Virus record (IMG/VR): IMGVR_UViG_3300013744_000001
Location: 1-64,000 of that record
Strand: one strand, 5' to 3'
Length of the DNA: 64,000 nt
Source of the DNA: a virus
A program made the position numbers and the translations under genes. Below, in pieces: positions 35,186 through 59,431 of this stretch (positions are counted from its first letter, which is position 1; each line of letters begins with the position of its first letter). A model generated the notes under the pieces. The model saw nothing but the letters and a program-made list of their open reading frames with translations. It made no database searches and was not told the DNA's origin.

Positions 35186-35207
35186 AGTAGAACCCCTTGT
35201 TTTAAGG

Positions 35208-35702
35208 TTAGACGGGTAAGCGGACAAAGCCTTCTTTGTCCAGAGGTAATTTCGCAAGTCTTGAAACACTGAGACCAAAGGTCTTTTGCACATGACAGTA
35301 CTCCCTGAATGTCTTCCAGTCTCCGGCCCACTCCCAACCGGCCTCCTTGAACTGGCCCACAATCTCCATCCAGTCTGCCTTGCCGTCATGGTCAAAGTCC
35401 TGCATCGTATCCCACGAAGCATACTTGCCACCGTCAATAATGAGGCAGAAGTCCATGGCCAGACCATAGTTGTGCACAGACTGACCACCCTGTGCATTGG
35501 TGACAATTTTGCCCGGTCGGGCTCGGCCCATGCTGTACAGTACGTTCTGTTCGGCAACGCTCCTGAACCCACAGGTCACCCGCATTTTGGCTCTGCCGGT
35601 CAGCATCTCGTTGTTGATTTTCTCGAATAACAGAATCGCTTCATCCCGAAGTTTGGGATGAAGCGATGCAATTCGTCGTTCGCTTAAAGGATCACTGTGC
35701 AT
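35208..35702 (-). CDS. endolysin, peptidase M15 family (L-Ala-D-Glu peptidase / D,D-carboxypeptidase fold)
   Basis: Zn-ligand motifs GQSVHNYGLAMDF (HxxxxxxD) and WEWAGDW...HV. The start may instead be the GTG at 35711. Confidence 0.65.
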   Translation of the reverse strand: MHSDPLSERRIASLHPKLRDEAILLFEKINNEMLTGRAKMRVTCGFRSVAEQNVLYSMGRARPGKIVTNAQGGQSVHNYGLAMDFCLIIDGGKYASWDTMQDFDHDGKADWMEIVGQFKEAGWEWAGDWKTFREYCHVQKTFGLSVSRLAKLPLDKEGFVRLPV

Positions 35703-36412: not shown

Positions 36413-36696
36413 CGAAGATTCCCCCTCTTTTCGAGCTTGTTAAAATTTTCTGCTATGTTCTTGAGGTCTCGTGCCATCTCGTTCAATTTGTTTTCCAGAG
36501 TCTTGTACTGATACTGTGATACTGCATTGTCAGTTTTGAGGTTGCTCAGTGTATGCTCTGTCTCATCCACCCTTCGTTTAATTTCATCTATCTGCATCGT
36601 CACCGACCTCAGGGAAACTTTTATCGTTGCATACGCTGTGCCGCAGGAGAAGATGACACAGAGTATCGCCCACATGCCGTTCAGCTCGTCAATCAT
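36394..36696 (-). CDS. membrane protein: N-terminal TM helix plus coiled coil (holin- or i-spanin-like)
   Basis: MWAILCVIFSCGTAYATI is a TM segment followed by a charged coiled-coil region. It lies within the lysis cluster. RBS cAAAGAGGcaaagcct. Confidence 0.4.
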   Translation of the reverse strand: MIDELNGMWAILCVIFSCGTAYATIKVSLRSVTMQIDEIKRRVDETEHTLSNLKTDNAVSQYQYKTLENKLNEMARDLKNIAENFNKLEKRGNLRWQENA

Positions 36697-37457
36697 AGGC
36701 TTTGCCTCTTTGGTTTGAGCTTGTCACAAATCTTCTCCTTCCACTTCATCTGCTGGATCATGACACCGTCCGAATGTCGTTTGCCTGTGTCCAGAAGAAC
36801 CACATAATCCCGACCCTTGTCCGTAGGTACCCATGTACCGTTTATATTACTCTGAAATCCTTCATGTGCAAGAAGTTTGTTTACTTCTCTTGGACCGAAG
36901 AAACCAAGACGCTGTGCAATCTGTGTAGGAGTGAGGAAGAATTGCTGGTCAGGGTTCTTCAGTTCAATCTGCAAAAGCTTCAGGGGAGACACTTTATAAA
37001 TGCGCATCATCGCATTGTCAGCCGACACTGTGGCCGCATTACCTTCGAGTCCGGCAGTAATAGCTATGCTCCTCAGAGCTGCAAACGTTCTGGATGTAAA
37101 CTCTTCCGAAGTCATATTCGCTGTTGCCACTTTATACTGCCCAGTCTTGCGAATGGTCGGAAGTACTTCCTCGAAGATCCAAGCCTCAAACGCTTGGGCG
37201 GCCGGCAACTGGGAGCTTACGATTAATCTGTACAGATCAGGCTCTGTCAGGAAACGTATGTCCTGCACACCACCTGCTGTTTGAAGGGGGTAGCATTTTG
37301 CTACCCCCTTGCAATGTTGCTTGATGGCATCAGACGCATTGACATAGCCCAGAATTTCACAGACATCCTTGCCGCAGAAGAGAGGGTTTCCGTCGATATC
37401 AACGATAGTGCGAACCTGACCCTGACCATTGAAACTGAATACTGTCATTTCATTCAT
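36693..37457 (-). CDS. Bro-N domain antirepressor-like protein (GNPLFCGKDVCEILGY subfamily)
   Basis: MNEMTVFSFNGQGQVRTIVDIDGNPLFCGKDVCEILGY is Bro-N. The C-terminal half parallels the 29950 product. Confidence 0.7.
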   Translation of the reverse strand: MNEMTVFSFNGQGQVRTIVDIDGNPLFCGKDVCEILGYVNASDAIKQHCKGVAKCYPLQTAGGVQDIRFLTEPDLYRLIVSSQLPAAQAFEAWIFEEVLPTIRKTGQYKVATANMTSEEFTSRTFAALRSIAITAGLEGNAATVSADNAMMRIYKVSPLKLLQIELKNPDQQFFLTPTQIAQRLGFFGPREVNKLLAHEGFQSNINGTWVPTDKGRDYVVLLDTGKRHSDGVMIQQMKWKEKICDKLKPKRQSL

Positions 37458-37477: not shown

Positions 37478-37643
37478 CATCTAAAATAAAATTTCCCAAC
37501 ATCGGTATTACCGATGTTGGTGCTGACCAATTACATGGGCCGTCCGCCCCGACGCATTTCAGGAAACGTCGTATATCTGTCAAAGTTAGACTCGTCTAAA
37601 ATAGGATTCCCAACATCGGTAATACCGATGTTGGGATTAATAC
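37478..37643. repeat. two copies of a ~45-bp element containing the perfect palindrome ccaacatcggta(tt/at)accgatgttgg
   Basis: Copy 1 at 37478..37526, copy 2 at 37589..37643. Both share tc(a/g)tctaaaata...ttcccaacatcggtaNNaccgatgttgg. Confidence 0.8.
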
Positions 37644-37803
37644 TTGATTTTTCGTCATTATCGAGAGTGCTTAACGCATCACTCAAGTTAACAATTTCCA
37701 GAATATCGCAGATGTCCTTGGCTACGAACCAGGGTTCTCCGTCTCTGACCACAGTGCGAATCTCGTGCTGGTTCTGAAAACTGAATACTGTTACTTCATT
37801 CAT
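37531..37803 (-). pseudogene. truncated Bro-N paralog
   Basis: The first 55 aa (MNEVTVFSFQNQHEIRTVVRDGEPWFVAKDICDILEIVNLSDALSTLDNDEKS) match the other Bro-N proteins. After that the frame runs into the palindromic repeat element and loses homology. Confidence 0.5.
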
Positions 37804-37853
37804 GTTTTGCTCCTTTGGGCAAAGATTGAAAAAATGCGCCTCTCGGCACTTCA

Positions 37854-37880
37854 GATGGGGTGGTATTTTGCCACCCCATC
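37854..37880 (-). terminator. terminator of the giant gene
   Basis: gatggggtgg - loop - ccaccccatc hairpin, followed on the minus strand by a ttttttc run and then the RBS of the next gene. Confidence 0.6.
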
Positions 37881-37915: not shown

Positions 37916-40900
37916 CTATTCGACGCTGATTCGCAACGACTGTCGCATAAGTTTGATTGCCCGATCCGTGTTGGCAATGGCGATGTCAATGGAATCCTTG
38001 TCCATGCGACTGGTGGGTACAGATTTGAGCAGATTGCGTTTCTTCTCCTCTAAAGAATTCAGCAACATAATGTCGAAGATGTTCTGCCCCTTGAGGAAAG
38101 CCATGGCGTTATCTTTGCTCACAAGCGTTGCCGCGTTCTTGCGACTGGTGGTCAGGTACTTATGAATCTCCTTCTCACTCAGACCGAAATCACGAATACC
38201 TTTGAGGAGGTAAACAGCCTTGTTCAGATCTTCGCGATTCTTCTCCCGAAGTTTTGCAATCCGCTCTGCAATATCCCGTGCCGGCAAAGGTTGACCCTTG
38301 GACAGATCATCGACAAAAGCCCGCTTCTTGACGTTTTTGCTCAAGCTCCCCTGCTCTCTGATAAAGTAACCCAGATGATTGGTCACATCTCTGACGTCAT
38401 ACTTGTTGACTGTAATGCCAGCGAGCTGGGGAACCTTTATCGCCCGACCCTTGCGAAAGTCAGTGTCTGTAGACGGAAGCCCCACAGTCGCCTGAAGTAT
38501 CTGGGTCATTACACCAGGCACCATCATACGTTTGCCAATAGCCGTGGCAGCCTCAGCAGGAGAAATCTCCCTGCCGAACTTGTCCTTGCCCATCAGATTA
38601 TTGACCAACTCCTGTGTCATTGTACCCTGAGACAGATCCATGAAGTTCTTCATGGCCTCGATGATGCGCTGCTCAAATGTCGGATCCTCGGTCGCAGCCA
38701 TAATGGGCGCATGGGTCAGCATGACGTTGTTACGGGCATAGTTGTAACCAAAGAACGAATACGGATCGTCGTGGTCACGCATGACAGGAAGGAACAGATT
38801 ATTTCCTCCGTTCAACCAGTTCGTTATCCTCGTCGCACCGTGATACTCCGACGGATAGAAGAAGGAACGAGCACGTCGTTTTTTCCGTTCATCATCGTCG
38901 TCATCCAGCTTAATAGCACCGAGCATGGTACCTAGTGCATAGGGCAGATAGGCGATGACACCCTTGGCTGCACCGAAGAGACCGTAGTACGTAGCCGTTG
39001 TCAAACCAACACCGATGCCTCTCTGTACAGCCTCCTTCGTCAAAGCGTCTTTGTACTCCTTCATTGCAGGTTCGTTTACATCGTCTCTGGCAGAGACCTT
39101 GCCCAGCTCCTCCATGACGTCGAAGAAGCGGGTATAGATCGCAGCGGTGATTCTGGCCATCTGGAAGTTATGCATCAGGAAGTCCGGCGTAATCATGCGG
39201 ATGGAATTCATCGACATGTGCCTGATGAGCTTGGGCGTATATTCCCATGACGTCGTTTCCTGTAGCGTCATCTCCGCAGCATCCTTGCCCGCCAGTCGTT
39301 CGTACTGCTCTTCTCTCAAACCAGGCGTGAGTGCCTTATGCTTGGCTAGCATGTTGTTGTAGTTGTTCATGAAGACCCAAGGCTTCAGCCACTCGTCACC
39401 GAATGCGTAGAACTGACGCATCTTGTCCAGAGCATTCTTGACGATGTTCTCCAAACCATTCTGACTCATGTTGGAAACGACATTCAGGTCACGCAAGTAG
39501 GAAAAAATTGCGTGTATCGCCTTCTCGTGCCAGCCCTTGTTCCTGATCTGCATCATAGTGTCGGATGTCGTAGCGCCCCAGATATGGTACTTGTACATCA
39601 TTTGCAGGAACTTGTTCTCAGCTTCGCTCAGGTTTTTGCTGTTTAGAAGCATTTTGTCTGCAAACTGTTTCCACGATACATGACCGGCTTTCTTCATCAT
39701 GCCGATGCGGAAGAGATGGCCTGACGACATGAGAATACCCAGACTGCCGATGTGGTTGCTGACTGCCAGGCGCAGACTGTAAATGGTACTGTTGGCCTTC
39801 ATCGAGTCGATGGCACCGGACCAGGCAGCTTCGCGCACATTCCTGTTGACTTCGTACTCGTTGTCAAGCGCGTGCTGGAAAATGGGATCGACGGCCACAT
39901 ACTTCAAAATGGAACCGTCTTCGGCCCACGAAAGGCTGTCGCTGTAACTGCGGTCATGCTCGATAGATTGTCGCAGTACGCCCATGCCAGTGTCCAGAAT
40001 ATGTTCCGCCATCTCCTGGTTGAACGTTAGCTTTTGTAAAATCTTCTCCTGCTGATCAACAGAGTAGAGCAGTGACTCGAAGAAGTTGGTGTTGGGATCG
40101 AGGAAGGTACGATAGAAGTTATCTTCCTCAGTATCTTCGAGTGTTCTGCCCCGAACAGCGGAGATGCGGTTCAGATGATCCTCGCCGTAACCGTTGTTAT
40201 TGTTACTCCTCGACGCTTCCATGATGAGCTGTTTGATTTCGGCACGCATGTTTCGAAGCAGCATCGTACGCCAGTCACTGCCGGCACGAATTTTGACTGC
40301 ATTTGAGGTGCGCAGCTCGAAGTAATGCTTCAGAGCATCCAGCCGTTCTTTGTCTTTCAGCACCGTCCTTGCGTCCCTGGTACTGCTGAGGAACTGCTTG
40401 TAGGTAATCAGACCCGCCTGTTCCTGCTGTGTCGCCGCTTCGATGATACGTTCCGCATCTCTGGCCCGCTCGTTCACTGTCATCTCGCCAGCACCGGTGT
40501 CCGTCTCCAGATAGGAGAGCAAACGCTGCAAATCACGTACACCTGTCTCACCGTTGAAAACATTGTACATGCGATGATCCCAGTCGGCGTGGAACCGGGA
40601 CTCGAATTGCGCCATGCTCTTACGCATCCTGCCAATTGTTCGCTCATCGATCTTGGCAATGCGCATGCGCTTCTCCAGCTCCAGAGCCTGACCACGAATC
40701 GCACGCCTGATGTCCAGTGCATTGCGATACTTCATGGACGAAAGCTCAAGTGCTGTCGCATCGGCGAGTCTGGCCTTCTGCATCATAGCAGAATCGGGAG
40801 CAAAGCCTAGCCGGGTAAAAACCTGAGCAAAGGTCTCATTACCTCTGCCGCCAATGAGATTGGGATCGAAGTGTGCATCAAGCAGAGCAGACTTCAGATC

Positions 40901-43900
40901 CAGAAGATCGAGGAAACGTTTCCTCTGCTTGCTGGCCACAGTCTCCGAAACTTTGTTCCAGAAATTGCCGATCAGTCTGGAAGCATAGGCTGTGCCTACC
41001 GACTCGCCAAGCACCGCATGCTCAACGTTCAGGCTGGGGAAGAAACCCCAACCTTTCAGTCGATTGTGCATGGGGAAGTTGTTGAGAATGAATTCAGCTA
41101 TAACATCGCCCTTCGAAAAAAACCTCCCCCACTTGCGAATAACCTCTCTGGTCTCGGCAACCTGCAAGGCTTCTCTAGTCTGCGGCACAGTCCTTCTGGT
41201 CTGACCGTAGTCGTTGGTTATGATCTGAATCTTCGAAAGCGGTGCTCTGGCACCCGTGGGTGACTGAAGTGTATTCTGAATCAGCCTTGCGCCTCGGCCA
41301 ACGACCGTACCCATTGTCAGAGCAATCAGATCTTTGGCAAACTTGTCTATCGCAGTGCGATCACCTATATTGACAAGCAGGCTGTTACCGATCTTTCGCT
41401 CGATCTCTGCCATTACGCCCCAGAGTCTCTCGCGCATCGCTCTATACTCTTCGTCGCTGATGTGAAAAGCATTGGCGATCTGCGGACTGTCGTCCATAAG
41501 CGACGCATTGACATGAGCGAAGAATTCGTTGACCAGATACACCTTCCACTTGTCCGGTACAAGGTATGGGTCAGATATACCCAGCATCTCAAAGTATTGC
41601 GGCAACTCGGCATAGATGGTTTCCGTATAGGCGTTGTAAATCCGCACAATTTCTGCATCCAGCGCCTTGCTGCCCCACATGGTCCAGCCGTAGTGAGAGC
41701 ACTCGTGCATGACAGTTGCCAGCACCTGCGGAATGCTTCTGTCCCAGGCTCTGATGTGGATGGATTTGTCAGTTGCTCTGTAGGGGAAGAACAGACCGAA
41801 AGCGTTTCGCAGTATGGCTTTAGCCGTCCGGGTCTCTTCCCAATGAATCTCGATCTGCTCATACAGTTCGGGTGGGAGAATCCTTTGAAGGAATGCCTCC
41901 AGTTCCTCGGGCGTTGTAAGTCCCGGAATCTTTCGCACAGTACCGTCTTCATTTGTGCTGAAGAGCGTACCATCGTCGTAGTTCGTCGTCAGCTCGCTCA
42001 GACTGTCCAGAGCAGCTCTGAAATTCTCGTCCTTGCCATTGACATCTTCGAACACATACTCAGTATTGCCGCTTTCGGTACGCACAGATGCTGTACCATC
42101 TGCATTGTACTCAGGAACAACACTGTCATTCTCCTCGATGCCGGCCTGAATCGCTTCGTCCAAAATTTCATTCCGGGTAAGCTCGGATGCCGGAGGAGGA
42201 ACAGGATGAGCAACATCGATCTCGCTGACATTGTTCTCCAGAGCACCGATGGCATTGGCAGCGCTCAACAGCTCAGCATCGGTGAGGGAGAGTGACGAAG
42301 GAGCTACGTGCAGAGCAAGCCCTGCGGCATCGTAAAGAGCATCGCGCACTTCGTTGAAGTGCGGATTCTCTTCACCTTCGAAAATAACTTCCCGCATCAT
42401 GGAGGCGAAGATACCTTTGCGATCAAAGGACTCTCCGTTCTGAGATTCTCTGACCAACATGCCGACAGTCGAGTCCAGAAGATCCTTGTCCGCTTCCAGG
42501 CTGGTCTGAAGTGCCCGCAGCAGATCGGTATCTCTGGCGTTGTCCGTCATCAGCACAGCACCATAGACCAGACTCTCCCGCTCATGGCCGGGCACAGTTT
42601 CGTCATACCGCATCGCAAAGCCACCGCCCTTGCGATTGTAGACACCAGGTGCACCCTGTATCTGCTGCCCTTCGACAGTCTCGTCAGACGAACGTCCGGT
42701 ATCCTGAATAGAAAAGAGTGGGAAGCCTTTGCTCTGAATACTGTTCCTTATCTCGTCGGTCAGCATCAGAGCCTGTCTAACGCCGATGTCCTGAATATCG
42801 ACGTTCTCCAATTTCGCGTCAGGCGAATGATCGGAAAGAATATTCTGCATGGCTTTGGGTAGAGTCTTCTGATACACCTCCAGTCTGCGCTTGCCCATGG
42901 TGTGCCAACGGTTGCTCTGATCTTCGGCACTGGTCCACGAAATACCGTCGATGTCACCCTGCTCCACAGCATGTGCGATAACCTGCTTTGCAACCATGGT
43001 AACCCATGCCTTCTGATATTTGACATAAGGCGCTTCGGGTCGCAGCTTACCAAAGAGCAAGTCGTTAGCCCAGTCACTCTGCACCTCTTCGACAAAGAGA
43101 ATGCGTTTGCCGTCGGTCGTCTCTCTAGTATCGAATCGGGTATGTGCAACGAGATCTTTGCCCTCTCTGGGAAAATGTCCCTGGTTAAACTCATCAGCTA
43201 CGAGCTGCTCGTTCATGTCTTGCTCGACGACAAAATCAGAAGCACGTTTTAACGCCTCTTCGAGTGTGTCAGTAGTATATGTAACAGTTGTACCATCGGA
43301 AACGTTGGATATGTCATAAAAATCATCGTCACTAAAAACTTCTATGGTAAGCGCATACTTGTTGTCCTTCTCCACATAATCTATATGCATATCTCGTCCC
43401 AGCATAGCATCTTCGGACAAAGTATAACGCAGCCCCCCATTAACAACCTCTTTGCGCCAATGACGAGGATCAATCACAAACTCGTGCAAATACTCAAGTG
43501 TCGGCGTTTTCTTGTTCTGATAGAACAGAAGCTCCGCATAATCGGTTTTTCTTCCTTCCATTACGGAACCGGAGTAATGCGTAGGTAGATAAGAGCTCGT
43601 ATCAGATGTAAGATATGCCAGTTCAGGATTGTTGTATATGTTTTGATTAAACCAATCGTTGAAATATGTTATAGCATCCTTGTAATTTTTGAACTGCTTT
43701 GCCCATTGCTTCCGAGCATTTCCGACAGCCTGCTGATTTGCCACAGGTTTGAACGTAGCATCAAGTATATTTTCGAGGCGAGTCTGCACATCATTGTTAT
43801 TCAGCAACGTCGTAATATCATCGTTATTTATGGCAAGTATAACACGTCTGATCCCAGTGCCTGCAGAATGAACACTCAATCTGCTCAACAAAGCATATGC

Positions 43901-46900
43901 AATCGGCTGATCAGCGAACAAATCACTGCTGACAGCAGCAAAAACATAATCTGACGACTCATGTTTTCTGATCCGAAGATCCCAGTCAGTGTTGTCAAGC
44001 GGCACACTTTGTCTGGCGTATCTGCCAAGCTTGCTGCGCGGACCGCCAAGCATTACATTTTTGAATTCAACATTGTTGCCGACCAGAAAATCATAGAGCT
44101 CTGCTGGCTCCACTATGTCGTTCGGGTCTTTGATTTCCAGCCACTCACGAACACCTGTCCAATACACCTCCTGATTGAACGGTGAACTCTCGCCTCTGTT
44201 CTTGCTTTCATTGCCCCACTGTACCAGTCTGGACAACCATTTGGCAGCAGGAAGATTGCGAGATTGTTCTCCTACCAACTCGGCCAGAGACGAATACCAA
44301 GGTACAGGTGATACCTGTTCACCGATATCATCTTCCGTAATTTCGCGTTCAACAAAATCTGCACGTGCCTTCAACTGCTGAATGTACAAATCAATATCAG
44401 CCTGAGGCGTGTTGTTCTCGGCCAAAATATAAACGTGCTTGTGTTGTCTGGAAAGACCGGAACTGTACTGCTGCCCGATGTACGATACGTTGAAACCAAA
44501 CAAACCTGGGTTGTTCATTTCGTTCAGATCAATCTCTTCGTCATATGCAAGCGCAGTTACAAACGGTACTCCGTTTTCCGTCATCTCGTGCATAAACACA
44601 TACTCTGACATGTGTTCTCTGTCGACAGAGAGATAGTCGATAACAAACGTATCGTTGATAAATCGACCAAGCGCAAAATCAGCAGAAGTGGTGCCCGGCA
44701 ACATCGCCTGTTGTCTGCGCATGATTATGTTCTGCAGCGCATCTATGCTTGACACTCTGTCGTTGAGCGAAGCATATATAAACCCGTAGCGCCTAAGTCT
44801 GTCAAACCGAGTATTGAAGTTCGATATAGTTTCAGGGCTATAAAACACTACACCCTTGTCTCGCAGCTTCTTCGGTATTGCACTTTCCTTGGGTACAATG
44901 TGCTTAGCATTCGGTCCAAGATGAACAATACCGCTGTCCATCTCCTCGTACTGAACAGGCTTGTTCGATATGGCCATCGAGAACTTCGGCGTCGCCTCGT
45001 CAAAAACCTTGAACTCTCCCTTGCTGTTCTTCACCACAAGATTACCGTCCTCGGCCTGCTGTACCGCAGGAGGAGAAAGAGACGAATCCGTCTGCCAATC
45101 TCCATACCACGCCTTGAAGGAAGGTGTTTGAACGAAGTCCACCATGAGATCGCTTCGAGAACGAAGTTCCTGATGAGCACTGAACAACTGAACAAAGCCC
45201 CGAAGCTCTTTTTCGAGGATGTGCTGGTCCTCCCGTGCAATATCTTCGGTCTGATACGCGGCAGATTCTCTACGCTCAGTTGCAGTCATATCGAGGCGGG
45301 TCTCTACATTGCGAGCCTCCGTCTCTCCGGCAATGGACTTGTACCATTTGATCGCAGCCAATTCCTGTTCATACTCTTCCTTCCACGAACGAACGACACC
45401 CCATTGAGCGTCGAACTTCGTCTTGTCCATGCCTCTGAACGCGGGTACATTCCGCCTGACATAGTCGTAGAAATGATCCCAGCCTACATTGTACAACTTT
45501 CTATAAATATCTCGCTCATATCGCTTTTCATTATAGTACGGAGTTTTTACAGCGAAGAGACGATTGATCAGTTTAACAAGTCGATTGATACTTGAGGCTT
45601 TGTACTTGTCAATCCGTACCTTTCGGGACAAATCTCCATTGGCTTTGACAGAAATCCCATGTGTTTTGAGATAGCCTGTCAGAAGAGATTTGTCCGTCAT
45701 CAGTTTCAACCATGGGCCAGGAGCATTCTCTCTGGCTTTCTCCCTGTTTACATTTACAGGTGCTTCCTCAACACTGCCCCCATTTGCAAAGCCTTCAATG
45801 TCCTGCACAGCATGCTGAATCTCATGCATCAATACCTGCTTTGCTTTCTCGGGCTTCTTCAGTAAATCATCGCGCAAATGAATACCGCGTTTTGGGCCAA
45901 AATATGTGCCTGCAACTCTGCTGTCGTCGTCAGCGCGATATGCAAAACGCATCTGCTGAAGCTCTGGGTACGCTGCGAACAATTCAGGTGCGTCGATTAT
46001 TTTGCGCAAAGCCACAGGTACAACTTGCGCAAGTGCATGTATTGCTTCGTTTGTACGAACTGTAATACCAGAGTCGTCAAGCTCATAGCGCCACTTCCCG
46101 TCTTTGCCTCGCTCCCAACCTGTCGCCAGCTTGATGAGACTCACGCTCTTGTTGGCAGCTTCCATCTCTCTTGCTACAACCAGATTGTCAAGCCGCGTCG
46201 TTGCCGCTTCAGCGTTGTCCAAAGCAGCAGCACCACGTTCTCCGGCAAAGGAGAACTGTACATCTGATTCTTCAGAGGCTGTACGCTCATGAATTTTGTC
46301 CAACTCTTTACGCAACTCATCGATTGGCACACCCAGATTACGAGCCAAACCGTAAATCTGAGCATTCCTCGATATTGTCTGACTGACATTGCGATCAAAG
46401 TCGCCGCGCCTGGCTGTACGCACAGCACCTCTGGCGAAGTTGACAATGTCCTGGTTAGTCAAACTGTCCGTATCGATGACACTCAGCTTGTACAAGTACG
46501 TCTTTATCCAGCTTACAATGCGACTAACGATACTCGTCGGGTTGCCGGCATTGGCCTCGACCAAATACGCTCCAACCTCTTCCCAGAAATGACGATCGTT
46601 CGAATTAAGTCTGTTGCCTTCCTGCACCCGCCTGATGGCTTCCCGAATCTGACGACCTTCTTCACTGTCATCATTCTGCCTATTCTTCAACTCATCCAGA
46701 ATGCCTGTGAACTCCTCATCGCTGAAGCCAAAACGTCTGACATGCGCGCCAAGCTCGTGCATAAGCACAGCACCGGCGTCGCCTACCCTGATACCGTCAC
46801 CCACAAGAACAACCTGCCCAGTTTCCGGAATAACAAAGCCCTGAATCAAACCTTCTCTGGAGTAGAACGGAGCTGTACCGTAGGCGGCAGCAATCAGTTC

Positions 46901-49900
46901 CTCGGCCTCTTCCTGTGTATCCACAAGTATCAGCGTCTCCGAACCCAGAAGATTGGCCAGACGACTGTCGCTCATCAGCCGTGTACGTAGCAACTCTCTC
47001 AGAAGCGAGATACCTTTGGTACCTGCGCGACGAACTCTAGCAGCTCTGGTGTTTCGTGAAAACAGAGGCCCTGCCAGCACACTCACACGTGCGTTCATGG
47101 CAACAAGTGCGTCGACATCTTTTACGTCTGGAAGCGGCTTGGTCACTGGAAAACTGCGATTGAACAGATCCTCGACCTTGCGCACCAGGTTCTGCATATC
47201 TTCCAGTGTCGAATTTCTGTCGTTCATGACCTCAGCAACTTCCTGACCCAGCTCACTGTTACTATCGAGGCGAGAACCAAGGACACCAGCGTAGATGCGC
47301 ACGGCGTTGCGATAGAAATTGCGCTCCATCCTGTCGGCGATCTCTTCCAGCGCAGCAGCTTTCTCCTCGGGCGTTGACAGTTGATTCGCTGCTTCGACCT
47401 TTTTAGCCACACCAGAGAGTGCACTCATAGCACCCTTGCTGAGCCTCATCTGCTCCCGAATGGCTGCTTCCAAATTTTGAATACGCTCGGTCTGCGTTTT
47501 TACAGCAAGTTCCGGTTGACCGGAAGTCACAGCATCTTCTGTACTGACAGACGTTGTCGCCTGGTCGTTGCTATGACCCATCGGATGCAGAAGCGACTCA
47601 TTAACAGAAGAGAAGAAGCCTTTTTTCGACGGCGTCCATGTCCAGCCCTGCGGCTCACCGAGCGGACTGAGGAGATGAACATACTCTTTGACCTTGGCCA
47701 GAATATCGGCAAAGGGCGTATCCTCGCCGAACATCACAAGACTGTTGTCATTGTTGAACTGACTGAGAATGGCGTGAACGCTGACCAACTCGCCTGTCGC
47801 AGCTTCGGAGTTACGGCCTATATCCTCAAGCTTTGTATCATTGCTGAAAAGCTTTGCCTTGCTGATATCCTTTGTCCAGTAAATACCCGTATTACCAGAC
47901 TTGGCAGAAACATACTCCGTTTCCCCGTCAGTGTTTACACGAGCAACAACGCGAGCGTCGATCCAGTTGGTACCAAAGACACTGCGCAAATCATCGAGAC
48001 TGGTTGCGTTGAACAAACGTTCGAGTCTTGCAGGGAACGAATCTTCTTCCGCAGACCATTCAATGACGCGGTGCAGAGGTCGCTTGTCGCCGGTTGTCTT
48101 GCCACTCGTACGCCAGACAGCGTAAATCTTTCGTTTCGCACTATCCTTCTGATTGCGAGGATAGACGAAAATGATTTCATCAGATACACCGGATTCAACA
48201 GGGAGAGAAATAGTCTCATATCCCTGGCGGCTCTTGCCCTGTAAAACACCGACGACATACTCGATACCTTGTCTGGCGTCGATCTCGTCGGTCATCTCAT
48301 CCATGAATCTGGTGAGATTACCCTTGGTCAGAAGACGACCACGCTGGTTGCGAAGAATCACCTTGCCGCTATCGGTGACATAGAGACTTAGTAATGCGCC
48401 ATTGTCTGTCACAAGAGAACGATAGTTGACATCGTTTCGACCCTCGTCATCAATGATTCTACTGAGACGAAGTCTGCGAATATCGTCATCGTTAAACTGC
48501 CACCAGGCTTTAGAGCCCTTCATCTGTCGCTGTACACGAATGCCTTCGGCAGGTGGACCAATGTAGATGCTCTTCGCAACCACCGTGCCCTGTCCTTCCT
48601 GATTGTTGGCATCGGGCTTGGCGTAAGCTGTGCGGATTTCCTGTCTCGCAACACGGTCATCCAGCTTTATCTGTGCACCTGTCTCCACATCATAGCCGTC
48701 AACCGTGGCATAGAGAGCACTGCTGTTGTTACTCTCGTGAAGCCTTGCATGATAAAGAATACCGTCTTTATAGGCATAGATGTCCCGACTTCCGATACCT
48801 CTGGACTTTCTTGTTTTGGCAGAAACCTGCTCAGGCGAGATGACAAAGTAACCCTGTTCTCTGAGCGTCTGCTCGATGTTTCTGGTGTCCTGAAGTTCTT
48901 CTCGCTTTGTGACGTTGCCGTCGTCATCCGTCTCTTCGACCTCCACCAACTCAAGGAAAGAAGCTCTGGTGCCTGATGCTCCCTGTCTGGGCACATCGGT
49001 CACGACGGGAATGGATACTGCCCCCGCAGGCGCAGTGTCTGTTACAAGCTCGGGAGGCGCAGTACCCTTGTATGTGTACAGCTCACGTTCCAGATAAGAC
49101 AGCAGACCCTCATCACTCTGATCCTCGATCTTGCTGGCATCGATGGTCGTGCTCTTGTGAAACACAACCGCATTGTCGTTTGCATTATGCAGAGCAACGA
49201 TTCTCTCGATCAGTCTGCCCGAACGATCACCGCGCACCGTAAGCGTCTGACCGGACGAGAATTTGACAGAAGCTTCGTCATTCTCGTTACGATGCTCTAT
49301 CTGCTTTGCGTCGATTGTCTTCTTGGTTTGAGGATCGTTGATTGTAGCCAGAAGGCGTAAATATGCCTCGCGATCCGAAGAACCTTCGGCAATGTACTTG
49401 CCGATAGACACAACACTGTCCTCCTGACCGGTAGCAGCATTTGTCAAACTGTCCCACTCGTACATGCCGTCCTTGCGTTTGGCATGAGGAAGTGTTGTCA
49501 CCTCTTTGTCAGACACACCTGCGATAACATCCGTACCATCATCAGTGGGACTGAGATCGTCCCGATTGACACCTTTGATGTCTGTACGCTTGGGAAAACC
49601 GGCAGCAGGTCCAACGTCCAGCGGTCCTTCGTCGTCTCCTCTGATGATGCGATCGTTGAACTCTTTTTCTTCAGCACGCGATGTCAGTTTGTCCCCTGCC
49701 TCGGAAACTGTATGAATGCCTGCACCGGACGCTGCACCGACGAGGAAGGTATCGATACTCCTGTCAACAACGTCCATCGCACCATAGGTCGCACCCTTCA
49801 GGGCAGCAGAACCCATGGCAACATGTTCCTGCGCCGTTTCGGTTACACCTTCAAAGAGAGCGGCTCTGCCGGTGCGTTGCAGAATATTCCGATCTGCTTC

Positions 49901-51064
49901 CCGCATTGCGGCAATCTCTGCCCGCCTTGCCGATATCCTGCTCAGTTCGACTCTCGTGGCATTGCGAGCTGTAACACCTCCGCGTGTGAACAAAGCCTTG
50001 GCTTCGTTAACAACACCGCCACCAACGACGTTGAGAGTACCGACAATATCCAACGACGCCGACGCAAGACCTGCGACAAGTGTGCTGGTCGGATGCTCGG
50101 GGTCGTAAACACCCTTTGCTCTTTCTTCCCCGCGTATTGCGCCCAGTTCCTGTGCAGAGGCAAAGATGCCCAGACCGGTAAGAATACGACGGGCAATGCC
50201 CAAGCGCCCCGTCTTGGGAAGGAATCTGGCAACGCCTACAAGACCAAGAGATGGAGCAATCGATGCCCAGTTCTCGATCAGCATCTCGTTGACCTTGCCG
50301 ACCAGAGCACCGAAACCCTCTTCCAGAAGCGTTTCTCTGGCACTCTTGCCATACGTCCGCTCATAGTTGCCGTTTTTGATATCTTCTTCAGTCTTGATCA
50401 CAGCCTGATTGGCCCAGTCGCTGATCTGCTTCGATCCAAGCTGATCACCCACAAGACCAATAGCATCTGCCCAATTCTGCGTAGCCTGCTTGACAGAATG
50501 CACAGCAGCACTGTCCCGCTTGACCGTTTCACCTTCCGCATCGGGCAGTGCCAGAGTTTTGGCATTGGACTTCAGAACCTCATCGACTGTCGTATACTCG
50601 TCGATACCCGATTTCTCAAAGAACAGCTTCTTGAAGTTGGCCTTGCTGACACCTTTCAGATACGGGAACTCATACTTGGTCGTTCTGCCGATGACCCTGT
50701 TGGCCATCTTGTCCATGTAGTAGTCAAGGTTCTCGGTCTTTACCGGGTCCGCTTCGATGAACGCTCTCAAAGTTTGAAGATTCAGAACATCGTCCGGATT
50801 CTCCGATGGCTTCTGCAAACCAAAGGTACTGTGCGCATCGGGGAAGATATCAAAGGTCGTGTTCAATGCAAAGTCTTCGCGCTCTTCCTTGCTGGCCAGC
50901 GTAGGATCGCTCTTGGCAACCTTGAGCGCAGCGCCATATGCCTGCTTGATAGCATGGTCGTAGAGATAATTCTTCTGCTCGGCACTCAAATCATCGGCGC
51001 TGCCTTCAACACCCAGCGCTGCCAAATACGACTGATAATCGAACGTGTCCCTTGAATTTGCCAT
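37916..51064 (-). CDS. giant 4382-aa protein with repeated zincin-like HExxH motifs (polyvalent, probably virion-delivered)
   Basis: Uninterrupted 13.1-kb frame. HExxH-type motifs LMHEIQHAV, VMHECSHYG and variant LMHELGAHV lie in separate regions. No Walker A or polymerase motifs were recognised. Its start is coupled to the upstream stop (TGAgATG). Confidence 0.7.
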   Translation of the reverse strand: MANSRDTFDYQSYLAALGVEGSADDLSAEQKNYLYDHAIKQAYGAALKVAKSDPTLASKEEREDFALNTTFDIFPDAHSTFGLQKPSENPDDVLNLQTLRAFIEADPVKTENLDYYMDKMANRVIGRTTKYEFPYLKGVSKANFKKLFFEKSGIDEYTTVDEVLKSNAKTLALPDAEGETVKRDSAAVHSVKQATQNWADAIGLVGDQLGSKQISDWANQAVIKTEEDIKNGNYERTYGKSARETLLEEGFGALVGKVNEMLIENWASIAPSLGLVGVARFLPKTGRLGIARRILTGLGIFASAQELGAIRGEERAKGVYDPEHPTSTLVAGLASASLDIVGTLNVVGGGVVNEAKALFTRGGVTARNATRVELSRISARRAEIAAMREADRNILQRTGRAALFEGVTETAQEHVAMGSAALKGATYGAMDVVDRSIDTFLVGAASGAGIHTVSEAGDKLTSRAEEKEFNDRIIRGDDEGPLDVGPAAGFPKRTDIKGVNRDDLSPTDDGTDVIAGVSDKEVTTLPHAKRKDGMYEWDSLTNAATGQEDSVVSIGKYIAEGSSDREAYLRLLATINDPQTKKTIDAKQIEHRNENDEASVKFSSGQTLTVRGDRSGRLIERIVALHNANDNAVVFHKSTTIDASKIEDQSDEGLLSYLERELYTYKGTAPPELVTDTAPAGAVSIPVVTDVPRQGASGTRASFLELVEVEETDDDGNVTKREELQDTRNIEQTLREQGYFVISPEQVSAKTRKSRGIGSRDIYAYKDGILYHARLHESNNSSALYATVDGYDVETGAQIKLDDRVARQEIRTAYAKPDANNQEGQGTVVAKSIYIGPPAEGIRVQRQMKGSKAWWQFNDDDIRRLRLSRIIDDEGRNDVNYRSLVTDNGALLSLYVTDSGKVILRNQRGRLLTKGNLTRFMDEMTDEIDARQGIEYVVGVLQGKSRQGYETISLPVESGVSDEIIFVYPRNQKDSAKRKIYAVWRTSGKTTGDKRPLHRVIEWSAEEDSFPARLERLFNATSLDDLRSVFGTNWIDARVVARVNTDGETEYVSAKSGNTGIYWTKDISKAKLFSNDTKLEDIGRNSEAATGELVSVHAILSQFNNDNSLVMFGEDTPFADILAKVKEYVHLLSPLGEPQGWTWTPSKKGFFSSVNESLLHPMGHSNDQATTSVSTEDAVTSGQPELAVKTQTERIQNLEAAIREQMRLSKGAMSALSGVAKKVEAANQLSTPEEKAAALEEIADRMERNFYRNAVRIYAGVLGSRLDSNSELGQEVAEVMNDRNSTLEDMQNLVRKVEDLFNRSFPVTKPLPDVKDVDALVAMNARVSVLAGPLFSRNTRAARVRRAGTKGISLLRELLRTRLMSDSRLANLLGSETLILVDTQEEAEELIAAAYGTAPFYSREGLIQGFVIPETGQVVLVGDGIRVGDAGAVLMHELGAHVRRFGFSDEEFTGILDELKNRQNDDSEEGRQIREAIRRVQEGNRLNSNDRHFWEEVGAYLVEANAGNPTSIVSRIVSWIKTYLYKLSVIDTDSLTNQDIVNFARGAVRTARRGDFDRNVSQTISRNAQIYGLARNLGVPIDELRKELDKIHERTASEESDVQFSFAGERGAAALDNAEAATTRLDNLVVAREMEAANKSVSLIKLATGWERGKDGKWRYELDDSGITVRTNEAIHALAQVVPVALRKIIDAPELFAAYPELQQMRFAYRADDDSRVAGTYFGPKRGIHLRDDLLKKPEKAKQVLMHEIQHAVQDIEGFANGGSVEEAPVNVNREKARENAPGPWLKLMTDKSLLTGYLKTHGISVKANGDLSRKVRIDKYKASSINRLVKLINRLFAVKTPYYNEKRYERDIYRKLYNVGWDHFYDYVRRNVPAFRGMDKTKFDAQWGVVRSWKEEYEQELAAIKWYKSIAGETEARNVETRLDMTATERRESAAYQTEDIAREDQHILEKELRGFVQLFSAHQELRSRSDLMVDFVQTPSFKAWYGDWQTDSSLSPPAVQQAEDGNLVVKNSKGEFKVFDEATPKFSMAISNKPVQYEEMDSGIVHLGPNAKHIVPKESAIPKKLRDKGVVFYSPETISNFNTRFDRLRRYGFIYASLNDRVSSIDALQNIIMRRQQAMLPGTTSADFALGRFINDTFVIDYLSVDREHMSEYVFMHEMTENGVPFVTALAYDEEIDLNEMNNPGLFGFNVSYIGQQYSSGLSRQHKHVYILAENNTPQADIDLYIQQLKARADFVEREITEDDIGEQVSPVPWYSSLAELVGEQSRNLPAAKWLSRLVQWGNESKNRGESSPFNQEVYWTGVREWLEIKDPNDIVEPAELYDFLVGNNVEFKNVMLGGPRSKLGRYARQSVPLDNTDWDLRIRKHESSDYVFAAVSSDLFADQPIAYALLSRLSVHSAGTGIRRVILAINNDDITTLLNNNDVQTRLENILDATFKPVANQQAVGNARKQWAKQFKNYKDAITYFNDWFNQNIYNNPELAYLTSDTSSYLPTHYSGSVMEGRKTDYAELLFYQNKKTPTLEYLHEFVIDPRHWRKEVVNGGLRYTLSEDAMLGRDMHIDYVEKDNKYALTIEVFSDDDFYDISNVSDGTTVTYTTDTLEEALKRASDFVVEQDMNEQLVADEFNQGHFPREGKDLVAHTRFDTRETTDGKRILFVEEVQSDWANDLLFGKLRPEAPYVKYQKAWVTMVAKQVIAHAVEQGDIDGISWTSAEDQSNRWHTMGKRRLEVYQKTLPKAMQNILSDHSPDAKLENVDIQDIGVRQALMLTDEIRNSIQSKGFPLFSIQDTGRSSDETVEGQQIQGAPGVYNRKGGGFAMRYDETVPGHERESLVYGAVLMTDNARDTDLLRALQTSLEADKDLLDSTVGMLVRESQNGESFDRKGIFASMMREVIFEGEENPHFNEVRDALYDAAGLALHVAPSSLSLTDAELLSAANAIGALENNVSEIDVAHPVPPPASELTRNEILDEAIQAGIEENDSVVPEYNADGTASVRTESGNTEYVFEDVNGKDENFRAALDSLSELTTNYDDGTLFSTNEDGTVRKIPGLTTPEELEAFLQRILPPELYEQIEIHWEETRTAKAILRNAFGLFFPYRATDKSIHIRAWDRSIPQVLATVMHECSHYGWTMWGSKALDAEIVRIYNAYTETIYAELPQYFEMLGISDPYLVPDKWKVYLVNEFFAHVNASLMDDSPQIANAFHISDEEYRAMRERLWGVMAEIERKIGNSLLVNIGDRTAIDKFAKDLIALTMGTVVGRGARLIQNTLQSPTGARAPLSKIQIITNDYGQTRRTVPQTREALQVAETREVIRKWGRFFSKGDVIAEFILNNFPMHNRLKGWGFFPSLNVEHAVLGESVGTAYASRLIGNFWNKVSETVASKQRKRFLDLLDLKSALLDAHFDPNLIGGRGNETFAQVFTRLGFAPDSAMMQKARLADATALELSSMKYRNALDIRRAIRGQALELEKRMRIAKIDERTIGRMRKSMAQFESRFHADWDHRMYNVFNGETGVRDLQRLLSYLETDTGAGEMTVNERARDAERIIEAATQQEQAGLITYKQFLSSTRDARTVLKDKERLDALKHYFELRTSNAVKIRAGSDWRTMLLRNMRAEIKQLIMEASRSNNNNGYGEDHLNRISAVRGRTLEDTEEDNFYRTFLDPNTNFFESLLYSVDQQEKILQKLTFNQEMAEHILDTGMGVLRQSIEHDRSYSDSLSWAEDGSILKYVAVDPIFQHALDNEYEVNRNVREAAWSGAIDSMKANSTIYSLRLAVSNHIGSLGILMSSGHLFRIGMMKKAGHVSWKQFADKMLLNSKNLSEAENKFLQMMYKYHIWGATTSDTMMQIRNKGWHEKAIHAIFSYLRDLNVVSNMSQNGLENIVKNALDKMRQFYAFGDEWLKPWVFMNNYNNMLAKHKALTPGLREEQYERLAGKDAAEMTLQETTSWEYTPKLIRHMSMNSIRMITPDFLMHNFQMARITAAIYTRFFDVMEELGKVSARDDVNEPAMKEYKDALTKEAVQRGIGVGLTTATYYGLFGAAKGVIAYLPYALGTMLGAIKLDDDDDERKKRRARSFFYPSEYHGATRITNWLNGGNNLFLPVMRDHDDPYSFFGYNYARNNVMLTHAPIMAATEDPTFEQRIIEAMKNFMDLSQGTMTQELVNNLMGKDKFGREISPAEAATAIGKRMMVPGVMTQILQATVGLPSTDTDFRKGRAIKVPQLAGITVNKYDVRDVTNHLGYFIREQGSLSKNVKKRAFVDDLSKGQPLPARDIAERIAKLREKNREDLNKAVYLLKGIRDFGLSEKEIHKYLTTSRKNAATLVSKDNAMAFLKGQNIFDIMLLNSLEEKKRNLLKSVPTSRMDKDSIDIAIANTDRAIKLMRQSLRISVE

Positions 51065-51065
51065 C

Positions 51066-51587
51066 TCAGTTCTGCTCCAGAATACCTTTGATTACATTGA
51101 CCACATTGCGACCAGCCTTGTTTCTGCCGGCAAGCTGTTTGGACAGCATCCCGATGACATCGGCAAGTGTGGCTCTTGGAGGAATGACAATCGAACGAAC
51201 TTCGGGCCTTGACTCGTTTATAACGTCAAGGAAACGCTTAATAGTACCCGAGTATATATCGTCACCGACAATCACGGCATCTTCACCGAAGTGAAACGCC
51301 ACTATCATATCGTCGATAGAACCGTACTGCTCGAAAAACATCCTGTCCATGATGGCTGTAGTACTGACATTGTCAGCCAGAGCGTAGACATTGACGTTGC
51401 CTGTCATCTGCGCAGCACGCTCAGGAAGCACAGGCATAAAGCCCTGCTTCCCGTCGATATCGTAGTACTCATCATCTCCGCCGCTCACATACAAAGCCCT
51501 TGCGATATAGCCAAAAGGGTCGGGGTGCCCGAGCGGAAGAAGAATCCCGTTGTAAACTTCCTTGAGCTGCGCAGCACTCAGTTCCAT
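51066..51587 (-). CDS. hypothetical protein
   Basis: 173 aa. The stop overlaps the giant gene's start. Confidence 0.45.
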   Translation of the reverse strand: MELSAAQLKEVYNGILLPLGHPDPFGYIARALYVSGGDDEYYDIDGKQGFMPVLPERAAQMTGNVNVYALADNVSTTAIMDRMFFEQYGSIDDMIVAFHFGEDAVIVGDDIYSGTIKRFLDVINESRPEVRSIVIPPRATLADVIGMLSKQLAGRNKAGRNVVNVIKGILEQN

Positions 51588-52096
51588 TACGGTGCCTCTT
51601 TCGGTACTTCAGTTATTGTCGTAGTCGTCGTGCTCATATTGGCACCGGTGGTGGGCGAGTTGTCCTTGCCCGAACCATACGTGTGACCTTTGCCCACCAT
51701 TGTAACCTTGTCACCGGCACTTTTCAACGCCTGTTTCATCACGTTGGCACCGGCAACAATGCCGGTTACAGCAATGCCTCCGGTGACGGCACTACCAACA
51801 ACCTGCGCCAAAGCCTGATTCTGCGCATCGGCAACATAATTGATGGCATCATAGGCATTGGTCTTAACCAGATCAGCACACCGATCCGCCTTACCGGCCA
51901 ACGCTTCGACAGCCACAAGCAAAGCCTGGTCCTTAACATCGGCATACTGCGGCGCCTGTGCCTGTTTGCTTTTATAACAGCTCTCCACCATCCTTGCCTG
52001 CGCATTGGCTATCTCCACATCATACTGTGTAAGCTTGTGTCCTGCGCAGGAGGAAAGGAAGAGAACGGGTAAAACGAACAATGTCGTACGTTTCAT
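51587..52096 (-). CDS. lipoprotein (lipobox LSSC)
   Basis: MKRTTLFVLPVLFLSSCAGHK is a signal peptide plus lipobox Cys. The mature part is A/V/G-rich. Confidence 0.55.
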   Translation of the reverse strand: MKRTTLFVLPVLFLSSCAGHKLTQYDVEIANAQARMVESCYKSKQAQAPQYADVKDQALLVAVEALAGKADRCADLVKTNAYDAINYVADAQNQALAQVVGSAVTGGIAVTGIVAGANVMKQALKSAGDKVTMVGKGHTYGSGKDNSPTTGANMSTTTTTITEVPKEAP

Positions 52097-54510: not shown

Positions 54511-55122
54511 TTACCCCTTGAGAAAATTATGCAGAGCAACGCCGAATGCCGTGCCTGCCGAATTGAAACCGTAACCAAAGGCATAAGTCGAACGCATATA
54601 AGAATCTGCAATACCCGGAAAATACTGGGCGTCACCCTCGCGCTCCACAGGAATGCCGACAACAACTTTCCAACGACTGAGCAGATCGGTGTTAACCCTT
54701 GTGCTCTCACTGTTATGCGTTACGGCGCGGACATGTGCAACCGCGGGTACGACACTAGTGGCAGCTCTGCCTGCGTAACCCACCATCGCCAGAGGACGAT
54801 ACCCGTCATTGCCCCGTCTGATCTTGCGCATCGACTCGCCGAAACCCCGAAACACAGCGCCCTTGGCCCGCTTGACACTGGAATCGCAGTACTTGTACGC
54901 GTTGGCAAAGAACTTGCGGTACCAGTTATAAAAGTCTGCGTCTGCGTCCCTGAACTCATAATAAATGTCTCTGGTCTCATCACCCAACTCTTCCAGCTTC
55001 TCAGCCAGTTGCTTGAGCTTCTTGATGTACTTGCGAAGCGCAATGAGATAAAAAGCCATCTGGGCAATGGAAAGCACCAGAGCCGATATCTCATAAAACT
55101 TGACAGCAGAACCACCAGCCAT
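54511..55122 (-). CDS. membrane-anchored protein, paralog of 55124..55930
   Basis: N-terminal TM helix ISALVLSIAQMAFYLIAL. The C-terminal motif GFNSAGTAFGVAL is shared with its neighbour. Confidence 0.45.
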   Translation of the reverse strand: MAGGSAVKFYEISALVLSIAQMAFYLIALRKYIKKLKQLAEKLEELGDETRDIYYEFRDADADFYNWYRKFFANAYKYCDSSVKRAKGAVFRGFGESMRKIRRGNDGYRPLAMVGYAGRAATSVVPAVAHVRAVTHNSESTRVNTDLLSRWKVVVGIPVEREGDAQYFPGIADSYMRSTYAFGYGFNSAGTAFGVALHNFLKG

Positions 55123-58933: not shown

Positions 58934-58935
58934 GT

Positions 58936-59431
58936 TCAACACACAATGTCCGAAGGCGGAATGGACTTCAGCTCGCAGTTATCATCGACAGTCAGTATCC
59001 TGTCACCTGCGACCAGATGTCCCTTGGGAATACCGTTCTTGTAACCGTACAGCTCACAGAGATTGACTGCCTTCTTGATCAGATCGCCCAGCTTGACCCA
59101 GCCTTTGAGACAACCCTTATCGTCCAGCACGGCCAGTCTGGTGTCCGCTGTAAGTGTCAGCTCTTCGTCCTTGCAGCCCGTGTCCGCCGGAGCATCGTCA
59201 CAGTCGAACACTATGCAGATGCCGGGTGGAAAGACGACCAGCGCATCGAAGCTGACGATAATTTCGTCACCCAGCGCAATGGACTTGCCAAACGAGTCCT
59301 GCCCGTTGTATGTCACACGGACTTTGCAGATCTGTCCGTCGTAAAACTGGGCACGAACAGCAGCAAAGTTATTGGTATTCTTCGGACTGAATACAAAACT
59401 CTGACCGACAAGCGGTGTAAGGACTTCCAGA
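58936..59431 (-). CDS. hypothetical protein
   Basis: ATG at 59431 follows GGAGGGAccttta. Confidence 0.4.

Follow-up and report, generated by a model that had tools for sequence, protein, structure and literature searches.

T7 gp16 (IVP-D, for internal virion protein D) is an internal core protein that is ejected to span the cell envelope, and P1 DarB is a packaged anti-restriction giant. Roles analogous to these are proposed here for a 4382-amino-acid (aa) protein, hereafter the giant, for which no sequence or fold similarity to either of them was detected. Its gene lies at 37916 to 51064 on the minus strand of our window, the stretch of 64,000 nucleotides (nt) that makes up positions 1 to 64,000 of IMG/VR virus record IMGVR_UViG_3300013744_000001.

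Several described proteins come closest to the giant. In phages of the F116 group, the T7 gp16-like IVP-D is a giant protein, H66 gp60, with domains that act in the cytoplasm (Hardies et al. 2016, PMC4819975); it has 3787 aa and is annotated as virion-verified by mass spectrometry, and cultured ~60-kb phages of this group encode giants of 3000 to 5000 aa. Zincin-like metallopeptidases (MPTases) are the commonest domain of polyvalent proteins, with 1 to 5 copies per protein and a HEXXXH variant among them, and they are proposed to process the polyprotein or to act once injected; N4 gp50, an encapsidated, injected giant of ~3500 aa, also carries an MPTase domain (Iyer et al. 2017, PMC5512222). 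Finally, gp47 of Stx phage phi24B, a polyvalent protein of 2811 aa, was found in podovirus virions by proteomics and is proposed to be ejected (bioRxiv 10.64898/2026.04.10.717836).

From a comparison of the giant with these systems, we consider that it is probably a polyvalent protein that an uncultured, podovirus-like lineage also uses as its giant virion protein of the internal, ejected type. It consists of an N-terminal region (aa 1-470), a middle that holds a HExGxH module, an LPD23+HExxH module and ~1900 aa of further unassigned cassettes, and a C-terminal region (aa 3041-4382).

Domain composition and class membership

The gene is a single uninterrupted frame on the minus strand, as a preliminary description of this DNA had stated and as the list of open reading frames (ORFs) and our translation, with one terminal stop, bear out. 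Intact versions are found in three independent assemblies, namely the window, the IMG/VR contig L001 and the Logan contig L009 (P0121). Measured against L009, the ratio of nonsynonymous to synonymous polymorphism (pN/pS) is 0.02 to 0.12 in 9 of 11 blocks of 400 codons and 0.24 to 0.30 over aa 2001-2800. Since the frame is intact in three assemblies and pN/pS is low in every block, we conclude that the ORF is a real gene, and these ratios show purifying selection over its whole length. The features of the giant are as follows.

37916 to 51064, minus strand: giant ORF, whole, 4382 aa plus stop codon, ATG start
49655 to 51064, minus strand: conserved N-terminal region, aa 1-470 (BLAST against the family, alignment consensus lines)
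47075 to 49654, minus strand: aa 471-1330, without assigned domain, conserved in closer relatives only
46304 to 47062, minus strand: zincin-like module 1, aa 1335-1587, with HExGxH at aa 1436-1441 and W.EV.AY..E at aa 1494-1503
46058 to 46210, minus strand: LPD23 (PF18838), aa 1619-1669, Pfam score 47.6 bits (cutoff 27), E 1.4e-12
45185 to 45997, minus strand: zincin-like module 2 (aa 1690-1960), bearing HEIQH (aa 1747) and the tail GETEARNVETR...TEDIAREDQ
41945 to 45184, minus strand: variable cassette region, aa 1961-3040, found in near-identical relatives only, fastest-evolving
42686 to 43216, minus strand: domain of ~180 aa, aa 2617-2793, containing ILFVEEVQSDW, tblastn E 1e-8 to 3e-3 to plasmid proteins
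37919 to 41944, minus strand: conserved C-terminal scaffold, aa 3041-4382, almost wholly alpha-helical in the AlphaFold2 (AF2) model
41375 to 41887, minus strand: zincin-like module 3, aa 3060-3230, at the scaffold start, bearing HECSH (aa 3120) and LVNEFFAH (aa 3178)
38879 to 39025, minus strand: aa 4014-4062, R..G, a ~35-aa Gly/Ala-rich hydrophobic stretch, then an acidic and then a basic cluster, in 33 of 33 aligned family members

LPD23 is the sole Pfam match above the gathering threshold in the giant, and matches to it are also on record for the relatives P0121 and P0122; in PHROGs, phrog_13543 matches aa 1589-1764, and searches of NCBIfam, PADLOC and PDB sequences gave no useful match. 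When aa 1201-2700 were used as the query of a word search through 5.8 billion proteins, 191 matches came back, all confined to aa ~1590-1960, whose precomputed domains include ART-PolyVal, LPD3, PF18819, InPase, PBECR1-4, Kinase-PolyVal, ddrB-ParB, SprT-like and methyltransferases. The module formed by LPD23 and the zincin-like sequence at aa 1590-1960 occurs, in other words, in many differing architectures. The giant carries an LPD or PolyVal family of Pfam, in this case PF18838, together with several unrelated domains that are shuffled among relatives, namely three zincin-like modules and LPD23 here and other enzymes elsewhere; on sequence grounds it is a member of the polyvalent-protein class. 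LPD23, the 191 module-sharing proteins and the cassettes of the relatives support the earlier proposal of a multidomain polyvalent protein of the virion or ejection module.

No protein above 2619 aa was listed by the word-index search, which may miss longer ones, and its failure to match a giant protein is therefore not reliable evidence of absence: queries of aa 1-1500 and of aa 3001-4382 returned nothing, though the HMMER search described below found a 98%-identical protein of 4387 aa and 40 further relatives. With its 4382 aa (relatives have up to 6309 aa), the giant is longer than every polyvalent match listed by the word search, the maximum there being 2619 aa. The stretch from aa 471 to 1330 matched nothing in the word search of the same 5.8 billion proteins, nor in plasmids; it is partly common to P0122, P0123, P0125, P0126 and P0134 by BLAST, and its pN/pS is 0.02 to 0.03.

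Two HExxH motifs occur in the giant, at aa 1747 (LMHEIQHAV) and aa 3120 (VMHECSHYG), with an expectation of 0.11 from composition and a Poisson P of 0.0056 for two or more. HExxxH occurs at aa 1436 (LMHELGAHV) and again at aa 3846; the first three sites are those of the preliminary description, and the fourth was absent from it. The HExGxH of module 1 is invariant in nine homologous modules, of which P0132 contributes two, with the downstream W.EV.AY..E also conserved, and across 109 homologous segments the HExxH of module 2 is conserved at 80% or more, as are the longer motifs HE.QHAIQ..EGF and Y..AGE.EARNV..R..M..EERR...ETEDVAREDQ, which include the conserved downstream GE.EARNV. Conservation in homologs had been set as a test of these sites; those at aa 1436 and aa 1747 pass it, and the one at aa 3120 is degenerate in many relatives. 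W.EV.AY..E, GE.EARNV and, in module 3, NE[YF]F are sequence-level candidates for the downstream motif that supplies the third ligand, a Glu. The conservation of the first two sites suggests that modules 1 and 2 are probable active metallopeptidases.

The three modules are remotely similar to one another. Comparison of alignments with hhalign joins module 1 to module 2 at E 7.6e-5 and module 2 to module 3 at E 1.9e-4, with the strand and the motif helix aligned. BLAST finds no similarity among the three modules and no internal repeat elsewhere in the giant, and the modules are therefore not recent duplicates. Thus, of the earlier picture of a protein built from repeated zincin-like modules, the presence of three modules stands, whereas they are not recent repeats and together make up ~15% of the giant, the bulk of which is its conserved end scaffolds and cassettes without assignment. 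In an AF2 model of aa 1330-1965 built from 27 sequences, the predicted local confidence score (pLDDT) is 85 to 94 for module 1 and 76 to 93 for LPD23 and the core of module 2; in this model for modules 1 and 2, and in the scaffold model described below for module 3, the motif region is predicted as three strands followed by the motif-bearing helix, an order that fits zincins. The Pfam SprT-like match at the aa 1747 motif is weak (E 0.13).

Relatives with fixed ends and variable middles

With aa 3001-4200 as the query, an exhaustive HMMER search through 1.84 billion cluster representatives identified 41 relatives, and in each full-length member it is the C-terminal end that matches. One relative is the 98%-identical protein of 4387 aa, eleven have 1680 to 6309 aa and 27 to 40% identity over the whole tile, about twenty have 1900 to 3200 aa and 22 to 26% identity, and a few are short fragments. 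When the giant is compared with the 41 by BLAST, aa 1-165 are common to many of them, short ones included, and the similarity reaches about aa 900 in closer relatives; in the giant, a Gly/Ala-rich stretch with a G.TE..QE motif extends to about aa 470. The region from aa ~1335 to 1587 is found in nine relatives, and that from aa ~2800/3050 to 4382 in all full-length members, while the remainder differs by member. In 13 members scanned with Pfam, the domains recognized were ddrB-ParB (2), SNase (2), LPD23 (2), Kinase-PolyVal, NADAR and DUF6782. Length, which the preliminary description had proposed to compare among related phages, varies, and so do the domains of the middle. P0132 has the HExGxH module twice, at aa 1946-2170 and 2405-2582, and two members, P0128 with 6309 aa and P0131 with 5705 aa, rank with the largest predicted phage proteins in this analysis.

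The giant of L001 has 95 to 99% protein identity to that of the window on both sides of aa ~1600. At this point, just before LPD23, L001 has 345 extra aa that match ART-PolyVal above threshold (E 3e-15).

L001 4145 to 5263: ART-PolyVal cassette of L001, corresponding in position to window 46253 to 46294, absent from the window giant

Synonymous divergence between the window and L001 is ~0 over aa 2000-3200 and 0.23 to 0.29 over aa 1-1600, and with divergence this uneven the gene is therefore a recent recombination mosaic. The family thus has fixed ends and a variable middle, with a cassette gained or lost between near-identical phages.

Within the middle, the motif TPSFKAWYGDW at aa 1983 (aa 1983-1990, ~45095-45118) opens the variable cassette region. 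Motifs of this type, (W.QV)RTP.FK.WFGDW, mark cassette starts at 21 sites in the polyvalent matches and family members, often before ART-like segments, and may be a recombination or linker signature. Further along, the domain at aa 2617-2793 has counterparts in hypothetical proteins of ~570 aa on plasmids of Burkholderiales (Achromobacter, Caballeronia, Janthinobacterium), in which a Pfam scan found no family. Such sharing, at the level of sequence, fits the phage-plasmid exchange typical of polyvalent-protein domains, and the plasmid homologs may hint at a betaproteobacterial host range.

The C-terminal scaffold (~1330 aa) is modeled as almost entirely helical (AF2, aa 3041-4240, 34 sequences, pLDDT 78.4, predicted template-modeling score [pTM] 0.69), and Foldseek of it against the PDB gave nothing below E 0.7. 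No match to aa 2001-4382 was found by tblastn in 50,697 phage records, scans of IMG/VR gave one close relative only (99%), and a scan of 185,579 GTDB representative genomes gave no copy, so the scaffold was not seen as a prophage. Its most hydrophobic conserved stretch, aa 4014-4062 (maximum Kyte-Doolittle value 1.35), is a candidate membrane-interacting element.

Like the polyvalent proteins described previously (PMC5512222), the giant has LPD23, several MPTase modules including the HEXXXH variant, a late or structural gene setting, and cassettes that are shuffled with ART-PolyVal, ddrB-ParB, Kinase-PolyVal and NADAR among its relatives. Unlike them, it has ~1800 aa of N- and C-terminal scaffold that is not among the described polyvalent domains in Pfam, and it has no portal, ArdC-N or MuF domain, the last of which the preliminary description had suggested.

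Genomic slot and competing readings

The genes that precede the giant on the minus strand place it in the tail or ejection gene block.

51066 to 51587, minus strand: 173-aa ORF, 1 nt from the giant ATG, syntenic in relatives
51587 to 52096, minus strand: 169-aa predicted lipoprotein, starting MKRTTLFVLPVLFLSSC, lipobox LSSC, syntenic in L002
52093 to 54507, minus strand: 804-aa SLT-like protein, Pfam SLT E 0.008 (sub-threshold), YAESRG...GFYQIT motif
57167 to 58942, minus strand: 591-aa tubular tail B / nozzle homolog of the F116 homology group, phrog_511 E 2.7e-25

In transcriptional order these are the 591-aa tail B protein, two small proteins, the 804-aa SLT-like protein, the lipoprotein, the 173-aa protein and the giant, which is the sixth gene downstream of the tail B homolog and stands broadly in the slot of the F116-group giants. 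The order from tail B to the giant is conserved in relatives (contigs L002 and L005; proteins P0122, 40% identical, 60- to 79-kb contigs, and P0134, ~23%). The 173-aa ORF has 52% and 44% identity to the ORFs that precede the giants in L002 and L005, and the L005 counterpart of the 804-aa protein has an SLT match on record. By tblastn, the 591-aa protein matches Sinorhizobium PBC5 gp17 and Pseudomonas Itty13; PBC5 p17 is listed for the F116 homology group as its tubular tail protein B (PMC4819975). Judged from these matches, the tail genes of the phage lineage that carries the giant are distantly related to the F116/H66 group.

The earlier account of this neighborhood needs some revision. The lipoprotein with its lipobox is there as described. 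The supposed adjoining SLT-domain protein does have the canonical YAESRG...GFYQIT motif, yet it lies two genes upstream rather than adjacent, with Pfam below threshold; the membrane-protein neighbors taken for paralogs, ORFs 54511-55122 and 55124-55930, are similar only faintly (E 0.007). Moreover, the 173-aa gene, said to overlap the giant as TGAgATG, ends AAC TGA and is followed by G and then by ATG, which leaves a gap of 1 nt.

The LPD23+zincin module is common to the giant and H66 gp60 (E 2e-16), and the second MPTase of H66 gp60 matches the module 1 copies in several relatives of the giant. Because the gene order is conserved, because tail B ties the lineage to the F116 group, and because H66 gp60, a virion protein, shares this module, we propose an ejection role for the giant. 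It fills the same genomic slot as H66 gp60 and, by analogy, probably does the same job with a different scaffold. The two resemble each other in the LPD23+zincin module, in falling into a class of 3000 to 5000 aa and in lying downstream of tubular tail B; unlike the H66-type giants (Hardies et al. 2016, PMC4819975), the giant has no PLxRFG motif or domain, and no methylase or helicase was detected in it. Bro-N genes follow the giant, whereas a lysis cassette follows the giants of H66, Parlo and Pavtok. A weak, compositionally biased match between aa 111-376 of H66 gp60 and the giant N-terminus was not relied on. Across the INPHARED phages (50,697 records), Megablast and tblastn matched the giant at aa 1589-1777 only. 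With phi24B gp47 the giant has its class in common, both being large polyvalent proteins that contain a metallopeptidase domain; the giant differs from the LPD5, LPD1, LPD38 and MuF-C set of that protein, the sequence comparison being limited to the negative phage tblastn. It differs from N4 gp50 in having no polymerase signal.

Two other assignments were tried and rejected. A tape measure protein is not indicated, with no such match in PHROGs or Pfam and with podovirus-type tail B and SLT genes as neighbors. Membership of the PLxRFG/IVP-D family likewise fails: in addition to the missing motif, the C-terminal family hidden Markov model (HMM) scores 2 bits against H66 gp60, hhalign against an alignment of PLxRFG from 11 phages gives a probability of 0.2%, and the reverse HMM finds nothing.

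Several points weigh against the reading of the giant as an ejected polyvalent protein. With a scaffold not detectably related to PLxRFG/IVP-D, the analogy with IVP-D comes down to gene position and helical character. About 60% of the giant is without functional assignment, and no clear transmembrane helix is predicted in its scaffold. A Foldseek search of the two-module model against the PDB was not significant (best E 0.79), so the zincin fold is not confirmed; zincins do appear among the non-significant matches, namely MATCAP (E 1.4), PPEP-3 (E 4.2) and selecase (E 7.0). Among 32 relatives, some keep HExxH at the aa 3120 site, many have EExxH there, and P0124, P0125, P0127, P0128, P0131 and P0152 have lost the motif, and the downstream LVNE[YF]F[AS]K of module 3 is kept where HExxH decays; from this pattern, module 3 looks like a zincin-derived domain in which catalysis is dispensable in the family. 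Finally, the giant is known here from genes alone, from which we infer its packaging, ejection, protease activity and targets.

The alternative that survives best, and that we still consider unlikely, is that the giant is a cytoplasmic anti-defense protein, produced early or late in the infected cell, resembling DarB without the injection and never packaged, and that its place among structural genes is incidental. Packaging is indeed deduced from context, database giants related to this one are annotated as methyltransferase, helicase or DarB-like antirestriction proteins, and the C-terminal scaffold matches no known ejection protein. However, the slot after the tail B, SLT and small-protein genes is kept in relatives down to 23% identity, and the giant sits 1 nt from the preceding ORF. 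The H66 protein with the same LPD23+zincin module is in the virion by mass spectrometry, phi24B gp47 is likewise virion-borne, and P1 DarB is itself packaged.

Less probable again is a reading in which the giant has no role but a structural one in ejection or in the tail, forming a conduit or an internal core, and its HExxH motifs are inactive relics. The retention of the domain around a third site that is EExxH or lost in many relatives would suit this, as would the helical scaffold that makes up most of the giant and the failure of the fold search to confirm a peptidase. Against it, the HExGxH at aa 1436 and the HExxH at aa 1747, with their downstream Glu motifs, are conserved across distant homologs, and relatives swap in bona fide enzyme cassettes (ART-PolyVal, Kinase-PolyVal, ddrB-ParB, NADAR, SNase), for which a solely structural protein would have no use.

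That the giant is a virion RNA polymerase (vRNAP) of the N4 type, with aa 1961-3040 as a very divergent single-subunit RNA polymerase that is injected for early-gene transcription and to which the MPTases are attached, like those of N4 gp50, is very improbable, and the preliminary description had already called it unlikely: phmmer of the whole giant against all PDB chains, which we take to include the N4 mini-vRNAP, gave nothing at E<=1; no polymerase match was found in Pfam, PHROGs or NCBIfam; tblastn against the phage records reached aa 1589-1777 only; and aa 1961-3040 are absent from all but near-identical relatives and are the fastest-evolving part, unlike an essential polymerase. These results, all at the level of sequence and profile, outweigh the facts that N4-like vRNAPs are always fused to MPTase domains (PMC5512222), that the N4 vRNAP is placed inside an IVP-D homolog (PMC4819975), that the unassigned block is about the size of mini-vRNAP and that no phage RNA polymerase is recognized elsewhere in the window. 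We therefore retain the reading of the giant as a polyvalent, ejected internal virion protein.

Downstream of the giant stop codon lie a 10-bp GC-rich hairpin at 37854 to 37880 and a 5-bp stem with a T-run at 37836 to 37849, with a T-run around 37829 to 37834. The terminator credited to the giant in the preliminary description is to this extent present, yet it is plausible rather than strong. The window is phage DNA, with genes for a primase, an exonuclease, a DNA polymerase, a helicase, the large terminase and a portal-like protein on its plus strand. Other features of the window are listed here.

37829 to 37880, minus strand: terminator-like hairpins, 36 to 90 nt past the giant stop codon
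24576 to 26258, plus strand: large terminase, for which 50,697 records of cultured phages contain one relative, a weak one in Pasteurella phage Pmp11 (23% identity)
29950 to 30696 (plus strand) and 36693 to 37457, 37530 to 37802, 61391 to 62116, 62135 to 62893 and 63356 to 63982 (minus strand): Bro-N / KilA-N / ANT-type genes
30702 to 31556, plus strand: C5 cytosine DNA methylase, at the end of the plus-strand block, near a Bro-N gene
31576 to 32607, plus strand: GT4/GT1 glycosyltransferase, at the end of the plus-strand block
32912 to 35572, minus strand: 886-aa ORF, no family match, with a diverged internal repeat at 306-nt spacing (34433 to 34532, 34739 to 34838)

The weak terminase match places the phage in an essentially uncultured lineage. 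At least six Bro-N / KilA-N / ANT-type genes occur in the window. The Bro-N-like copy directly downstream of the giant is short (<100 aa) and apparently truncated, and its start is similar to that of the Bro-N gene that follows. A 27-nt perfect palindrome, CCAACATCGGTAWTACCGATGTTGG, occurs in two copies 114 nt apart, at 37494 to 37520 and 37610 to 37636, and a T-rich run follows each. The short Bro-N-like ORF contains one of them and the other lies just past its end; they could be terminators or a protein-binding site. Between the window and L001, divergence is greatest in the 886-aa ORF (972 aa in L001), with ~80% nt identity, and this ORF is likely a tail fiber or receptor-binding protein. 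The methylase and the glycosyltransferase may have DNA-modification or host-surface-modification functions.

Proposed mode of action and its meaning

In the mechanism that we propose, both end scaffolds would see to packaging in the capsid and to exit via the tail. The SLT-like protein would first open the peptidoglycan, the scaffolds may contribute to a trans-envelope conduit via the hydrophobic segment at aa 4014-4062, and the middle would enter the cytoplasm together with the DNA. There, the metallopeptidase modules would cut the polyprotein into active pieces and/or cleave host defense proteins, and relatives would instead deliver ADP-ribosyltransferase, ParB-like nuclease, kinase, NADAR or SNase cassettes.

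More tentatively, as a possibility that we rate at somewhat below even, the N-terminal (~470 aa) and C-terminal (~1330 aa) regions form an undescribed chassis for protein delivery in an uncultured podovirus lineage, predicted to be all-helical, unlike solved structures and unrelated to T7 gp16/PLxRFG, which carries up to ~4500 aa of exchangeable cassettes into the host cell. If so, it would be an independent solution for ejecting very large cargo via a short tail, and a natural platform to inject engineered proteins into bacteria.

The scaffold family and the phage lineage are new, and the principle of giant internal virion proteins that host cytoplasm-bound enzymes is already published; the finding thus extends an existing concept and adds no new principle. 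Polyvalent virion proteins are regarded as the opening attack of a phage on host defenses, and to our knowledge almost none has been tested experimentally. Here, giants that are 95 to 99% identical in their flanks and differ by one ADP-ribosyltransferase cassette amount to a natural experiment, through which the function of the cassette and the limits on cargo become testable. The scaffold itself, a new and confidently modeled helical architecture of ~1300 aa, could widen knowledge of how podoviruses eject large proteins.

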